From NCBI GenBank assembly GCA_965223325.1, contig CBDCWI010000001.1:416001-480000 (forward strand): a stretch of 64,000 bases of DNA, read 5' to 3'. The notes beneath the pieces are model-generated. The model was not told the origin of the DNA, made no database searches, and saw only the letters and a list, made by a program, of their open reading frames with translations. The stretch comes from Candidatus Multivoradales bacterium (GTDB lineage: Bacteria; Acidobacteriota; Thermoanaerobaculia; Multivoradales; Multivoraceae). The position numbers were made by a program, and so were the translations under genes. Positions 1 through 6,923 of the stretch are shown here, one piece after another (positions within the stretch are counted from its first letter, which is position 1; every line of letters starts with the position of its first letter).

Positions 1-560
1 TGGCGGTGCTGTTGGAGGAGCGACCTCCACATGTGGCTGGGCGTGTACCACGAGCCCAGCTACCGTCACATCTGCGGCGCAAGCGCTACGCAGCGACGGC
101 CGGCTTCAAGCGCGCTCGCCCTCCACAGGCGATCAAGAACTGCCAAGGCACCGGCGCGCGCCGCGGATTCTTGCCCTCGTGAAACCAGCTGACCCGGCTC
201 TCCACTCATGAGCGCGGGCGGCCTCTCTAGAGCGGTCCAAGGTTGGAATGGCGGTGCTGTTGGAGGAGCGACCTCCACATGTGGCTGGGCGTGTACCACG
301 AGCCCAGCTACCGTCACATCTGCGGCGCAAGCGCTACGCAGCGACGGCCGGCTTCAAGCGCGCTCGCCCTGCACAGGCGATCAAGAACTGCCAAGGCACC
401 GGCGCGCGCCGCGGATTCTTGCCGTCGTGAAACCAGCTGACCCGGCTCTCCACTCATGAGCGCGGGCGGCCACTGTAGAGCTGACTTTGGTTTGGTGGGC
501 GGTGCTCTTGGAGGAGCGACCCCAACATGTGGCTGGGCACGTACCCCACGAGCCCTCGCT
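1..560. repeat. Tandem array of 248-bp non-coding units (2 full copies plus a degenerate partial copy; truncated by the window start)
   Basis: TGGCGGTGCTGTTGGAGGAGCGACCTCC begins at 1 and 249, with a diverged copy at 497. Copies 1 and 2 are nearly identical over about 225 bp. Each unit has several internal hairpins. Confidence 0.95.
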
Positions 561-583
561 TCGTTCACTAGCTGGCTGCCTCC

Positions 584-1648
584 TCAGCCCGCTGTTGACG
601 GCGCTCCGACTCCCAGGCGCTCGAGTAGCTTGCGGGTGGCGATGATGCCTTCTTCTTCACGGAGGCGGTCGCCTTCGTACTCGACGCCGACCCAGCCGAC
701 GTAGCCGGCTTGGCGAACGATCTCCATCATGCGGGCGAAATCGATCGTGGTCTCGTTGCCCGCTTCGTCGAAGTTGTAGCTCTTGGCGCTCACCGCTCTG
801 GCGAGCGGCATCATCAACCGAACGCTCTGGTAGATGTCCTGGCCGGGTTCGAAATTGCCAAAGTCCGGAAGAGTGCCAACCAGTGGGTGGCCGGTGCGTT
901 CCATGACCTCCATCAGCCAGGCGGCGTCGCTCGAGTAGCCGCCGTGGTTCTCAACCAGGATGTGGAGGCCCTGGTCTTCGGCACGTTCGCAGAGCCGGCG
1001 CAGGCCGTCGGCGGCATGAGCGAGCTGTTCTTCGCGGGTGCCGCTCGAGTAGGCGTTGACCCGAATGGCGTGACAGCCGAGGATCTCGGCCGCATCGAGC
1101 CAGCGTTGGTGACGCTCGACACTCGCCAGGCGGTCATCGAGGGCCGGCGCCCCCAGATCGCCCTCTCCGTCGCACATGATCAGCACATTCTCGGTGCCGG
1201 CATCGACCGCCCGATTGCGCAGTTCTCTCAGGTAGCCGCGGTCGTTGCCGTTGGCGTAGTAGAAGGTGTTGACGTACTCGACTCCGCCGAAACCGAGAGC
1301 CGCCGCGCGCGCAGGAAAGTCGAGTGGATCGAGCGGTCCTTCCAGAACCGTCGCGGGAGCTTCCCCTAGCCGACGGATGAACTCGTCGCCGGCGGCGTCG
1401 CCGAAGTCGGTGCGCCAATCTCCGAAGTGGCTGCGGTTGAGTGACCATTGGGCCAGGGAGAGCCTGCTGGGCGGTCCGTCGGATGCGGAAGTGGCGCTTG
1501 CCGCAGCCGCGGTCCCCAAAGAGGGTGCGGGCGGGGGTGAACCGCCCGCGGCTTCGTTTCTGCCTTCGTTGCAACCGGGCAGGGCGCTGGCCATGGCCAG
1601 AGCGGCGAGCGTGCGACCGGACGTGCCGAGGAACTCTCGTCTGTTCAT
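584..1648 (-). CDS. Tat-exported (lipo)protein, sugar phosphate isomerase/epimerase (xylose-isomerase-like TIM barrel)
   Basis: N-terminal RREFL Tat motif and ALPGC lipobox-like sequence; family motifs SLAQWS, VENHGG, LPDFGNF, VSAK and GVEYEG. Confidence 0.85.
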   Translation of the reverse strand: MNRREFLGTSGRTLAALAMASALPGCNEGRNEAAGGSPPPAPSLGTAAAASATSASDGPPSRLSLAQWSLNRSHFGDWRTDFGDAAGDEFIRRLGEAPATVLEGPLDPLDFPARAAALGFGGVEYVNTFYYANGNDRGYLRELRNRAVDAGTENVLIMCDGEGDLGAPALDDRLASVERHQRWLDAAEILGCHAIRVNAYSSGTREEQLAHAADGLRRLCERAEDQGLHILVENHGGYSSDAAWLMEVMERTGHPLVGTLPDFGNFEPGQDIYQSVRLMMPLARAVSAKSYNFDEAGNETTIDFARMMEIVRQAGYVGWVGVEYEGDRLREEEGIIATRKLLERLGVGAPSTAG

Positions 1649-1752
1649 GACAACATGTTACGCCGCCCCGATGGCGATTGGGCCGGAATGTCTGAAGACC
1701 CCTTCGTGACGCCAGATGAGGTCGCCTGGCGAGAGCGCCGGGACTTCGCCGC

Positions 1753-3518: not shown

Positions 3519-3567
3519 AAAACTCCGAATTCTCCACCTGGCGCCTGCACGATCGCCCGTGAGGGCC

Positions 3568-5433
3568 CTACCAGCCGCAGGTTCGGCCCTCGTTCTGCTC
3601 GGTCAGCCAGGCCTCGAGCGGTGCGAAGTAGTCGAGGATGGCGCTGGCGTCCATCGCGCGGCTGCCGGTCACGGCTTCGAGAGCGTCCTGCCAGGGCTCT
3701 GACGAACCCATCGCCATCATCTCGCGTAGCTTGGCGCCCGCCTCGGCGTGACCGTAGATCGAGCAGCGATGAAGCGGCCCGTCGTAGCCGGCGACATCAC
3801 AGAGGGCGCGCTGGAACTGGAACTGCAGGATGTGGGCGAGGAAGTAACGCGTGTAGGGCGTGTTCGCCGGGACGTGGTACTTCGCACCGGCATCGAAGTC
3901 TTCTTCGCTGCGTTCGACCGGCGCGGCGACGCCCTGGTACTTCTCGCGCAGCTCCCACCACGCCTGGTTGTACTCGTCGGGACGAATGTCGCCGGAGAAG
4001 ACACCCCAGCGCCACTGGTCGACCAACAGGCCAAAAGGCAGGAAAGCGACTTTCTCGAGCGCCATGTTCATCAGCAGGCCGAGGTCGGCTGAAGCCGGCG
4101 GCTCTTCATCGATGAGCCCCAGGTTCTCGAGGTAGGCCGGGGTGACCGAGAGCGCCACGGTGTCGCCGAGCGCTTCGTGGAACCCGTCGTTGGCGCTGTC
4201 GCGAAACAGGACGTCCTGATGGCGGTAGGCGAGTTGGTAGAAGTTATGGCCGAGCTCGTGGTGGATGGTCGAGAAGTCTTCGGCGTTGACGTCGATGCAC
4301 ATCTTGATGCGCACGTCGTCGTCGTAGTCGATCTGCCAGGCGCTGGCGTGGCAGACCGCCTGGCGATCTTCCGGCTTGGTGAGCATCGAACGTTCCCAGA
4401 AGGTCTCGGGAAGCGGCTCGAAGCCCAGCGAGGTGAAGAATCCCTCACCGGTCTCAACCATCGACACCGGGTCCTGCCCGGTCGCTTGAAGGCGCTCACT
4501 CAGGTCGTACCCCGGGTCGGCGGCGGGCGGAGCGACCAGGGAGTAGACGTTGCCCCACGACTGCGCCCACATGTTGCCGAGCAGGTGCGCCGGGATCGGC
4601 CCGTCTGCCGGCACGACATCGCCGTACTGGTCGCGCAGGCGGGCGCGCACGTGACAGTGCAGTTGGTCATAGAGCGGCCGGACCTGCTCCCACAGGCGAT
4701 CGAGCTCGGCGGTAAAGGCTTCGGGCTCCATGTCGTAGCCCGACCGCCAGAGATCGGCAACGTCGGAGAACCCGAGGTCCCGTGCGCCTTCGTTGGCGAG
4801 CTCGGCGAAGCGCTGGTAGAGCGGGCGCATGTCGCGCGAGGTCGTGCGCCAGCCGGCCCAGGCTTCGGCGAGCGCCTCGGGGTCGCGGCTCTGGTCGATG
4901 ATCGTTTCAAGGTCTTCGAGCTCCTGGCAGGAGCTCTCGCCATCGGGGCAGTACTTGCCGGAGCCGTACATGCTCTCGAGCTTGGAAGCGAGCTCGGCGA
5001 GTTCACTCTGCTTCGCTGGGTCCCGAGGGGCGGGCAGAGTCTGGCCGGTCTTCAAGATGTTGAGCTTGCGCGCCTCTTTCGCCGGAGCTTCGGCTTCGTC
5101 GAACTCGGCGGCGGCGGCGGCGAGATCGGCCGCCAGGCCCAGCAGCTTCTCGTTGGCTGCGGCGGCGGCGGCAGTGTGCTCGGGCGTGATGTCGGTCGCC
5201 ATTTGCCAGTCGGCCTCGGAGGTCTCGATCCCCGCCTCGAGCAGACGCTGTTCCGCAGAGCTGAGGAACTCGCTGAGCGCGGGCGACGCGACCTCTGGGT
5301 CGACGGAATCGGTGGGGTCGGCGGGCGAGCAGGCCACTACGACGGTGACCGCGAGTGCGGTGACCGTCAGGCGGCCGAGTGCCCGTGCCGAGGACACCGG
5401 GAGTTGCGAAACGGCGCGTGAAGGATTGATCAT
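3568..5433 (-). CDS. M2 family peptidyl-dipeptidase A (ACE-like), probable lipoprotein
   Basis: HHELGH zinc motif, downstream [38 protein letters not shown] lipobox. Start is 5433 or 5493. Confidence 0.95.
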
Positions 5434-5521
5434 GAAGGCCTTCCTTTCAACCGTCTGGAGCGGTGCGAGAACGTTCTCCATCGGGCGGTTCATGGGGTTT
5501 CCCGCAGCCTATCGAAGCCCT

Positions 5522-6923
5522 GCCAGCCCGCGTGCCACCCGGCGTGCCGACGAAGGAGTTCTCCCCCGACCTGCAGAGTCTCGCTTCGGCCGAAGACCCG
5601 TAGGTGCCCGCGGCCATACCCAGACGATCCTGTCCTCTCTCGAAACAACCGTTTCAACGAGCCACGAATCCGCCGCGCGCAACGGCCCACGGCAGGCTGG
5701 TACCGCAAGTGCCCCGGGCATGTCCCGGGCGTTTCCCGGGCGTTTCCCGGGCAATCGACTGGGGTGGTTCTGGGATTTCGCGGCACGAAAACCACTATCG
5801 CCACGGACTGCTTGCGCAGCAAGGGTGACGGCTAGCGGTCCGCGTGCTACACGACCTGCCGAAGAACCCACAACGCCACTCCAACCCACAGCCTGCCCCC
5901 AACAAGCACACCGAAACGGAGAAAACCCCCGACCTGCGCACTCTCACTTTGCTCGATCAAACAGGAGCCCGCGGCCACACCAGACGATCCTGTCCTCTTT
6001 CGAAACAACCGTTTCAACGAGCCACGAATCCGCCGCGCGCAACGGCCCACGGCAGGCTGGTACCGCAAGTGCCCCGGGCATGTCCCGGGCGTTTCCCGGG
6101 CGTTTCCCGGGCAATCGACTGGGGTGGTTCTGGGATTTCGCGGCACGAAAACCACTATCGCCACGGACTGCTTGCGCGGCAAGGGTGACGGCTAGCGGTC
6201 CGCGTGCTACACGACCTACCGACAGACCCAGAACGCTACTCCAACCCTAAGCCCGACCCCACCAGCACACCGAAACGGAGAAAACCCCCGACCTGCGCAC
6301 TCTCACTTTGCTCGATCAAACAGGAGCCCGCGGCCACACCAGACGATCCTGTCCTCTCTCGAAACAACCGTTTCAACGAGCCACGAATCCGCCGCGCGCA
6401 ACGGCCCGCGGCAGGCTGGTACCGCAAGTGACCCGGGCATCTCCCGGGCATTTCCCGGGCAATCGACTGGGGTGGTTCTGGGATTTCGCGGGTCAGAGGC
6501 CTGTGGCTGCTTTGACCCAGGGCGAAGAGCTCACGAGAACCGCCACCGCTGCGCACTGCTTGCCCGGCAAGGGTGGCGGCTAGAAGTCCGCGTGCTACGA
6601 CCTGCCGAAAAACCCAAACGCCACTCCAACCCACAGCAGGAGCCCGCGATCACACCAGACGATCCCAGTCCTCTCTCGAAAAAAGCGTTTCAACGAGCCA
6701 CGAATCCGCCGCGCGCAACGGCCTATGGCAGGCTGGTACCGCAAGTGCAGGGCGAAGAGCTCACGAAAATCACGATCGCCGCGGACTGCTTGCGCGGCAA
6801 GGGTGACGGCTAGCGGTCCGCGTGCTACACGACCTGCCAAAAACCCACCACGCCACTCCAACCCACAGCCTTCCCCCAACAAACACACCGAAACAACGGC
6901 CGCCAAGCACGCGGACCGCTAGC
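5522..6923. repeat. Tandem array of ~320-360-bp non-coding units (about 4 units plus a degenerate left partial unit) with an 18-bp inverted repeat at the right end
   Basis: CGAAACAACCGTTTCAACGAGCCACGAATCCGCC occurs at 5641, 6001 and 6360, with a variant at 6677 (periods 360, 359, 317). GCTAGCGGTCCGCGTGCT (6809-6826) is inverted at 6906-6923. Confidence 0.95.

Follow-up and report, generated by a model that had tools for sequence, protein, structure and literature searches.

The window analysed here is a 64,000-nt stretch (C1:416001-480000) of the genome of Candidatus Multivoradales bacterium, which has a G+C content of 64% and totals 6.69 Mb, its two contigs measuring 2.14 and 4.55 Mb. Two tandem arrays lie at its left end, array A at 1-560 on the + strand and array B at approximately 5500-6922, which is read on the - strand; these respective strands are referred to below as the unit-A orientation. 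Both arrays are members of one apparently species-restricted family of non-coding DNA elements, which start at the stop codon of the gene upstream and carry in their units an arm complementary to the sequence around that stop codon.

The relationship between the two arrays was examined by local alignment. When the B unit at 6630-6923 was reverse-complemented, array A (230-500, +) aligned to it with a score of 74, compared to 19.5 ± 2.3 (maximum 30) for 200 dinucleotide shuffles (z = 23). Inverted comparisons with the remaining three B units gave z values of 8.3, 8.6 and 5.3, whereas all four same-strand comparisons showed no homology (z = -1.1 to 0.8); the arrays are therefore homologous in inverted orientation only. 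These results confirmed the proposal of an earlier sequence-only reading of this DNA that the arrays are diverged inverted homologues, and all of the motif blocks that it had listed fell inside the alignment of array A with 6630-6923. Its observation that neighbouring copies are more alike than the arrays are to each other also held, since adjacent units were mostly 0.93-1.0 identical, as against 66-72% between loci.

Tandem Repeats Finder (TRF) placed array A at 1-555, with a period of 248 nt, 2.2 copies and 93% matches; in the genome the array begins at C1:415969, 32 nt to the left of the window. Unit 1 (1-248, TRF) is followed by unit 2 (249-496), which was found to be 95% identical to it in a repeat-finding search, and by a truncated and decayed third unit (497-560, 90% identity), all on the + strand. 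The upstream gene, to the left of position 1, encodes a 236-aa pilin-like protein with an N_methyl motif (Pfam). Its TAG stop codon (C1:415950-415952, approximately 50 nt left of position 1) lies in the left arm of a helix designated P1. The right arm, ACCACGAGCCCAGCTA, is located at 47-62 with a second copy at 295-310 (+), and can pair at 16/16 positions, in both units, with TAGCTGGGCTCGTGGT, which lies at the stop codon of the pilin-like gene. A second helix, P2, spans 74-164 of unit 1, with its 5' strand at 74-79 and 83-85 and its 3' strand at 155-157 and 159-164 (RNAalifold and pair counts); in unit 2 the same coordinates are shifted by 248 nt. The sequence-only reading had suggested that a guide array might have its partner gene left of the window. 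This part of the suggestion was not supported, as the pilin-like gene anchors array A by its stop codon in the same way as unrelated genes do elsewhere.

In array B, three to four copies at spacings of 360, 359 and 317 nt were detected within 5538-6894 by the repeat-finding search. The array starts at the stop codon of an APH/EcKL-type kinase gene (6919-8130, -; Pfam): the left arm of P1, CTAGCGGTCCGCGTGCT on the - strand, occupies 6906-6922 and includes the TAG stop at 6919-6921. Four units follow on the - strand, namely the gene-proximal unit (6630-6905; right arm 6810-6826, 16/16 complementary), the second and most diverged unit (6257-6629; right arm 6580-6596, 14/16), the third (5898-6256; right arm 6192-6208, 16/16) and the fourth (5540-5897; right arm 5832-5848, 16/16). 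The P2 loop of three B units contains 2.7-3.7 copies of an 11-nt micro-repeat, CCCGGGC(A/G)TTT (5713-5753, 6073-6113 and 6432-6461; TRF and repeat-finding search); the gene-proximal unit and the family consensus lack this micro-repeat. The presence or absence of this insert accounts for B unit lengths of 360 nt or approximately 290 nt, the gene-proximal unit being the short form. A decayed remnant at about 5500-5539 (-) was recognised by eye only. Both arrays had been said to end in a degenerate CACG..GCTA motif on the side facing the intervening genes. For array A this was correct, 541-560 being the decayed right arm of the truncated third unit; the counterpart at about 5520-5550 was seen by eye only and is unscored.

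Three genes on the - strand, all identified by Pfam and unrelated to the element, separate the arrays: AP_endonuc_2 (584-1648), Peptidase_M14 (1753-3537) and Peptidase_M2 (3568-5493). No cas gene, spacer or transposase was present between the arrays, as had been stated previously. The Peptidase_M2 gene encodes a full-length angiotensin-converting-enzyme-type peptidase (744 bits) and adjoins the Peptidase_M14 carboxypeptidase gene.

A genome-wide family anchored on stop codons

A BLAST-type search of the genome with one A unit returned 92 places. When a clean profile was built from one full, intron-free unit at each of 34 loci, it gave 182 matches in 70 clusters on both contigs, with at least two matches in 43 of the clusters; in these counts intron-split loci are included twice and the four units of array B contribute 7 matches. 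Apart from small, low-score open reading frames (ORFs), all of the 182 matches lay outside the crude gene calls described below. The family comprised 40 of the 69 merged TRF arrays with a period of at least 100 nt, and it accounts for most of the long tandem arrays of this genome. The sequence-only reading had envisaged a locally and tandemly amplified family whose structured elements measure about 250-360 bp, and this was upheld by the 182 matches and by two covarying helices, on a scale far larger than had been claimed. Stop-codon anchoring, locus-specific complementary arms and group II intron homing into the unit went beyond that reading.

The basic element is approximately 250 nt long and lacks both an Rfam match and any ORF that matches Pfam. 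At the level of the window, no Rfam family reached its gathering score over the 64 kb, and the sole match in positions 1-9000 at E ≤ 1 was a chance SgrS match outside the arrays. A conserved core of 125 nt follows P1 and closes helix P2. Array periods across the genome ranged from 128 to 360 nt, the short-period arrays being composed of truncated units that retained the 3' half of the core only. Repetition, at 86-100% identity, extended to whole units of 128-360 nt and so took in what lies between the cores, and adjacent units within an array were mostly 93-100% identical; in contrast, mean column identity between units of different loci (one unit per locus) was 66-72%. There was no consistent trend or age gradient from gene-proximal to distal units in 18 arrays.

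The position of the element relative to genes was determined with a crude gene picker, in which ORFs of at least 70 codons were ranked by length x (GC3 minus GC2) and which gave a coding share of 0.89. In unit-A orientation, the upstream gene was co-oriented with the unit in 56 of the 70 clusters. The neighbour of 12 of the 14 other clusters was the reverse transcriptase (RT) ORF of the intron described below, and these exceptions are thus the distal halves of intron-split loci; when intron-split clusters were set aside, co-orientation was observed in 56/58. The downstream gene of the 56 clusters was in the opposite orientation in 31 cases and in the same orientation in 25. Of the 39 loci whose first unit was complete, 33 had column 1 of the profile 23-33 nt past the stop codon; there were three far outliers, at least two of which (214 and 1456 nt) showed the end of an ORF missed by the picker, with a TAG at the expected place. 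The element begins 1 nt before the stop codon of its co-oriented upstream gene.

The anchoring stop codon was TAG at 39, TGA at 6 and TAA at 2 of 47 loci; by the crude calls, 1902 of 5056 genes genome-wide end in TAG. The 47 upstream proteins were unrelated to each other and included Omp85/POTRA (BamA), IMPDH, RecA, a class II aminoacyl-tRNA synthetase, argininosuccinate synthase, arginase, RibBA, YchF, TonB-dependent receptors, two autotransporters, pilin-like proteins and kinases. YchF ended in FRFNV and many of the upstream proteins ended in F or W; we take the YchF end, and the F or W ends of outer-membrane-type proteins, to be native for those families. When left arms standing alone were sought with a loose pattern (TAG-N7-9-CGTGG), background dominated, with 265 non-family, non-stop matches compared to 1327 in the reversed control. 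As an aside, a TAG share of 38% of crude gene calls is high for DNA of 64% G+C.

The left arm of P1 is 16-17 nt long and consists of the base before the stop codon, the stop codon itself, a variable stretch of 7-9 nt and then CGTGG(T). This pattern, N-TAG-(C/T)-N6-8-CGTGG, is the reverse complement of a CCACG-N-CTA-N segment that was found in every unit, such that each locus has one left arm and each unit one complementary right arm. In the first unit the right arm is located about 95 nt downstream of the left arm, the two arms lying some 78 nt apart. Complementarity was 15-16/16 in 46 clusters and 14/16 in two more; the clusters beyond those 48 consist of truncated fragments, or of the distal parts of split loci, for which the left arm falls outside the searched stretch. 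Loci with a TGA or TAA stop had TCA or TTA, respectively, in the right arm. The middle of the arm varied between loci, and one arm core, CGAGGGG, recurred behind five unrelated genes; the arms therefore belong to the element and were not copied from each target. The idea of a guide array survives in a changed form, in that 16 nt of each unit are complementary to the end of the unit's own upstream gene.

Of 54 distinct 18-nt arm pairs, 23 were perfect. As read from the list of pairs in unit-A orientation, the internal transition mismatches comprised approximately ten A.C or C.A and one G.T, which is suggestive only, since several loci share arms; these mismatches would be wobble pairs on the opposite strand only. 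The right arm is bordered by CTA(C) and CGTC(AC) motifs, and in each unit it has a weaker local partner, with which it could form a CGTG-TAC-CACG hairpin (by eye). Downstream of the arrays, the left arm was not repeated directly at any of 47 loci; the best matches there were 6-9/11, at scattered places.

Folding of the 34-locus alignment and of its reverse complement with RNAalifold yielded one long-range helix, P2, between TGCGGCGCAAGC and GCGCGCCGCGG, which are approximately 80 nt apart and pair through GCGGCGC with GCGCCGC. In the 34 sequences, one P2 pair was GC in 23 and CG in 10, while another was CG in 31 and GC in 3, and the same pairs were the top Watson-Crick pairs in a mutual-information scan. 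Covariation was then counted over the 24 pairs of P1 and P2 in 29 preselected first units that included the left arm, or 696 cells. Of these cells 98.3% were paired, compared to 79.5 ± 0.9% in shuffles (0/500 reached the observed value) and 26-54% in a control in which the partners were slid by 1-3 columns. Changes on both sides were seen in 17/24 pairs (9.5 ± 1.3 in shuffles) and there were 114 compensated cells (27.4 ± 4.1 in shuffles). No cell was changed on one side only to give a G-U pair, so that all of the covariation was Watson-Crick. Such perfect complementarity without wobble looks more like an inverted repeat at the DNA level than a typical RNA stem. The folding energies of single units were unremarkable when compared to shuffles (z = 0.89 and -0.90 as RNA, -1.95 as DNA of the opposite strand). 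Both P1 and P2 were present in the DNA minimum-energy fold of a B unit and in the RNA centroid of an A unit.

A group II intron in the repeat units

A 1910-nt group II intron was present in 14 copies in the genome, all outside the window (for example, C2:893360-895269), 12 of which were identical to the reference copy. It encodes a 521-aa RT/maturase (TIGR04416, 342.3 bits against a cut-off of 300; RVT_1, 9e-39) in the translation of which a YADD motif was read. The intron RNA matched RF02005 (group II D1-D4) with 180.6 bits over the full model; at E ≤ 1 there was no second Rfam family at the intron loci, including domain V-VI, and domains V and VI and the 3' AT were recognised by eye only. 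The intron starts with GAUAC instead of GUGYG, and about 355 nt precede the likely ORF start. This short 5' part is genuine, since in a relative with 58% RT identity, from a Solirubrobacterales metagenome-assembled genome, the 5' end falls at the homologous position and follows ...CACTTG. The Solirubrobacterales relative itself sits in an ORF resembling that of an insertion sequence (IS).

Thirteen of the 14 copies were inserted in family units, always after ...GCTTG and before CGC(C/G)GC, a site that is located within the 3' strand of P2, and all 13 were antisense to the unit-A orientation. When the empty sites of these 13 copies were rebuilt, they scored 49-162 bits with the clean profile; the single ectopic copy follows ...GCGCTTG. 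The compact intron has since adopted this one P2 site as its homing site, and it represents an example of a group II intron that lives almost wholly inside a non-coding repeat. By comparison with the 13 filled sites, the window contains an empty homing site, GCTTG/CGCGGC, at 6788-6798 (+) with the cut between 6792 and 6793, in the P2 3' strand as read on the + strand. Further empty sites are located in array B on the + strand (6174/6175 and 5814/5815, with a degenerate site at 6562/6563) and in array A on the - strand (79/80 and 327/328).

Homology between the 3' end of the intron and the unit, which was indicated by iterated nhmmer searches, was rejected: the clean 34-unit profile gave a best score of -2.6 bits (E = 1.6), the apparent overlap having arisen because the iterated profile was contaminated by 12 identical intron ends. 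Separately, the unit at C2:721792-722022, which lies 240 nt from an intron-containing unit, has GAT in place of TTG at the homing site (…CCGCGATCGCC…), which is the intron 3' junction sequence and may be a footprint of intron loss or recombination.

Distribution and comparison with known systems

Searches outside this genome were negative. A covariance model, with at most 74 candidates scored per genome, gave no match at E ≤ 0.001 in 40 relatives (one from the same genus, 23 from the same family and 16 from the same order), and under laxer filters the best E values in the three nearest genomes were 0.4-0.5. A strict pattern over both P2 strands had 77 matches in this genome, none in 400 other genomes of the phylum and none in the reversed control. 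The same strict pattern had no match in a metagenome scan; a loose 23-nt seed returned 24 metagenomic loci, of which the best scored 28.6 bits as against 125-153 bits for members, and none was accepted as a relative. The best orthologue of the kinase encoded upstream of array B had 48% identity; with the kinase as query, the same-genus genome yielded no orthologue. Empty-site comparison was ruled out because the relatives are too distant. Repeats with arms complementary to stop-codon regions, or tandem arrays of such repeats, were not found in the literature searched, which lay outside subscription journals.

The closest resemblance was to repetitive extragenic palindromes (REPs), bacterial interspersed mosaic elements (BIMEs) and REP doublets forming hairpins (REPINs), whose palindromes bear an unpaired GTAG or CGTC tag and are mobilised by REP-associated tyrosine transposases (RAYTs). 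Like these, the family has a high copy number (182 matches, 70 clusters), is non-coding and extragenic, and consists of inverted repeats able to form hairpins. According to PMC3733652, the TAG of GTAG-tagged REPs is often the stop codon of a flanking ORF, and REP clusters are reiterated in tandem together with flanking DNA; an outer TAG that serves as a stop codon and tandem clustering are both features of the family, as are the CTA(C) and CGTC(AC) motifs, and the genome contains 29 RAYT-like ORFs. The differences are considerable. The unit is about 250 nt rather than 20-40 nt and has arms some 78 nt apart, a 125-nt extra core with its own helix and a locus-specific arm middle. The TAG is at the outer end but is paired, within an inverted repeat of 16-17 bp and not a short palindrome. 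Nearly all family loci, not a fraction of them, are on stop codons, and the RAYT-like genes examined are flanked by an unrelated inverted motif.

The family also shares several properties with IS200/IS605 elements and with the non-autonomous palindrome-associated transposable elements (PATEs) derived from them, for which the properties of IS608 served as the reference: terminal inverted repeats at both ends and target duplication are absent, there is a strict orientation relative to a short flank (here N-TAG), hairpins are present and an internal segment pairs with the flank. The element always follows N-TAG (or TGA or TAA) without duplication. However, the pairing in the family involves 16-17 nt and merely extends a hairpin, no hairpin at a second end is defined, and no link to TnpA, TnpB or another transposase was established. 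By analogy, the family could be likened to miniature inverted-repeat transposable elements (MITEs) such as Correia/NEMIS and ERIC, which are non-autonomous, measure 100-300 nt, are transcribed together with adjacent genes and can fold into long hairpins. In contrast to MITEs, the right arm is internal, so that terminal inverted repeats are not found at both ends, no target-site duplication was found, there is no known parent IS, and the units form tandem arrays.

Integron attC sites are similar in that an imperfect inverted repeat begins at, or close to, the stop codon of the ORF before it, conservation is greater for structure than for sequence, and the site acts as folded single-stranded DNA, as the family would also do. 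Some group II introns have attC sites as known targets (PMC7923331). Family loci, however, are dispersed behind housekeeping genes and not collected in one cassette array, and units within an array are identical, including between the cores. The intron finds a parallel in RmInt1 in ISRm2011-2: as set out in PMC1802570, the RmInt1 protein lacks an endonuclease domain and the intron spreads within a single genome by homing into copies of a repeated element, as is the case here for 13/14 copies. In this genome the host repeat is non-coding and in tandem, and the intron is very compact. Finally, CRISPR arrays resemble the family in having regularly spaced repeats, and the sequence-only reading had noted a GAAAC-like motif. 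There are no unique spacers in the family arrays, because whole units repeat; the repeats are not short, they occur at 70 loci, and no cas gene was found between or beside the window arrays. For annotation, these arrays should be regarded neither as CRISPRs nor as genes.

Selfish DNA, RNA element or guided copying

We consider that the family is, with about even probability, a REP/REPIN- or MITE-like non-autonomous selfish DNA element that has been locally amplified in tandem. The case for selfish DNA is made by the occurrence in one genome, the unrelated host genes, the arms that travel with the element, the wobble-free repeats, the variable copy number, the truncated arrays and the intron parasite. 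An enzyme acting in trans would recognise such an element in the form of folded single-stranded DNA, and the element would survive only where it landed on a stop codon. Units would then multiply locally by unequal recombination or replication slippage, which would explain why each array keeps its own arm sequence. If the family is mobile, it would constitute an unusually large, structured relative of REP-like elements whose position is nucleotide-exact on stop codons, and the combination of this anchoring with a private perfect arm at each locus would point to a targeting or copying rule that is new for bacterial repeats. The family is best classed with the non-autonomous repeats of bacteria, among which its stop-codon-anchored, locus-specific hairpin is unusual, and the approximately 50 natural variants in one genome make this a tractable case.

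Several results weigh against an explanation in terms of selfish DNA. The unit is about ten times the size of a REP and has two long-range helices. Intergenic TAGs (8719, both strands) outnumber the 1902 TAG stop codons, and consequently TAG targeting combined with purifying selection is insufficient to account for the anchoring. No empty site or presence/absence polymorphism was seen. The 98.3% share of paired cells is inflated because the 29 loci were preselected to have a complete first unit and arms matching at 14/16 positions or more, and the genes were called with a crude ORF picker. No mobilising enzyme was identified. A search of the genome for a RAYT partner, in line with a check proposed in the sequence-only reading, identified 29 Y1_Tnp (RAYT-like) ORFs, open frames of approximately 175-410 aa, only 1/29 of which adjoins a family array. 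Those paralogues whose flanks could be placed were bordered by their own inverted motif, AGTCGGGGGGACTTTCCC (37 copies), and the gene flanks did not support a link between the RAYTs and the family. For three of the Y1_Tnp ORFs the best NCBIfam match was REP_Tyr_transpos, below its cut-off. Strict co-orientation with the upstream gene and a stop codon inside P1 would, moreover, also suit a function as RNA.

The strongest alternative, although an unlikely one, is a cis-acting RNA element in the 3' untranslated region (UTR) that is transcribed with the upstream gene. P1 would lock the stop codon and the next 13 nt in a duplex of 16-17 bp, P2 would form a second domain, and together they would govern how translation or transcription terminates, or how the mRNA 3' end is stabilised or processed (RNase III being one example), with the additional units of a tandem array providing alternative partners for the single left arm. 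Co-orientation in 56/70 clusters, or 56/58 without the intron-split ones, is consistent with such a function, as are the start of P1 1 nt before the stop, its adherence to the identity of the stop codon, the covariation of two helices and the CGTG-TAC-CACG hairpin (by eye), which would permit alternative folds. Many of the hosts are housekeeping genes or end in an aromatic residue typical of outer-membrane proteins. If this explanation were correct, the family would be a device that places the stop codons of housekeeping genes (recA, guaB-type IMPDH, bamA, ychF) in a long duplex. It is difficult to reconcile, however, with the absence of any G-U pair in 696 cells despite 114 compensated cells, or with arm mismatches (approximately ten A.C or C.A to one G.T, at loci that are not all independent) that would wobble on the opposite strand only. 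The family was not found in 440 other genomes, the host genes have no function in common, and single-unit RNA folding energies were similar to those of shuffles (z = 0.89 and -0.90). Promoter and terminator consensus sites numbered 1 and 6 in 7.2 kb, which was at shuffle level.

It is improbable that the element directs its own homing by a guide. In such a system the 16-nt right arm would pair with the left arm containing the stop codon, either in single-stranded DNA or as an RNA-DNA hybrid, and would direct new copies to that position as DNA or cDNA. The best match to the guide in the genome would be the element's own locus, and repeated insertion at this place would produce tandem arrays whose arms are specific to the locus. 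A single left arm at each locus with a perfect complementary right arm in each unit, Watson-Crick complementarity without wobble, an arm that follows stop codon identity and arrays whose units are alike at one locus but differ by about 30% from those of another would all be expected, and IS200/IS605 elements do select their target by pairing with an internal guide. No enzyme was identified, however, and the left arm is itself borne by the element, being identical behind five unrelated genes; because the left arm, including CGTGG(T), is part of the element, spread to new loci would be left without an explanation. Nor was a clear age gradient from proximal to distal units seen in 18 arrays, and there are arrays of truncated units without a right arm (periods of 128, 130 and 209 nt). 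If true, this would be a nucleic-acid-guided mobile system that has no recognisable protein partner, uses stop codons as landing sites and carries a private 'address' for each gene end.

That the arrays encode antisense or small RNAs on the strand opposite the upstream gene, each unit forming one RNA module, is very improbable. The intron is in this orientation in 13/13 cases and would be transcribable and spliceable if that strand were expressed, and only on this strand do the few single mismatches of P1 and P2 become wobble pairs. The strand asymmetry, however, amounts to about 11 mismatches that are not all independent, the units contain no promoter-like site above shuffle level and there is no Rfam match. 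In introns whose protein has no endonuclease domain, moreover, orientation is set by replication and not by transcription. An assembly artefact or a decayed remnant of a protein-coding gene, the latter having been put forward in the sequence-only reading, is scarcely credible: long open frames run across array B as elsewhere in DNA of 64% G+C, but contigs from two public runs are identical to the unique flanks at 442-5649 and 6809-8200 and stop inside the arrays, where word depth is raised 3- to 10-fold, the same architecture is present at 70 loci, 0/9 ORFs inside the window arrays had a Pfam match at E ≤ 0.1, and base pairs in the helices covary.

Other repeats were recorded in the course of this analysis. 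Many of the RAYT-like ORFs are clustered near the contig ends (C1:2126-2144 kb and C2:4455-4487 kb), further examples being C1:970004-971336, C1:1242371-1243765 and C2:784924-786298, and a tandem array at C2:1745184-1745588 is likewise formed by their AGTCGGGGGGACTTTCCC motif. Outside the family, the intergenic 14-mer set with the highest abundance belongs to a separate MITE-like family, with a 17-mer, CCCCGTACCATTGAAAC, that occurs 52 times, in several cases as inverted pairs 136-137 nt apart (for example, C1:539024/539161 and C2:83376/83512). Among the 69 long-period TRF arrays, the other 29, without a family match, comprised about ten in long open frames, the rest being mostly singletons with three groups of two. 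The window itself contains a third long tandem repeat, at 28079-30238 (period 468 nt, 4.6 copies, 95% matches), which sits within a 769-codon open frame (28069-30375, +) that has no Pfam match and probably encodes a repeat protein; this repeat is unrelated to the element family.

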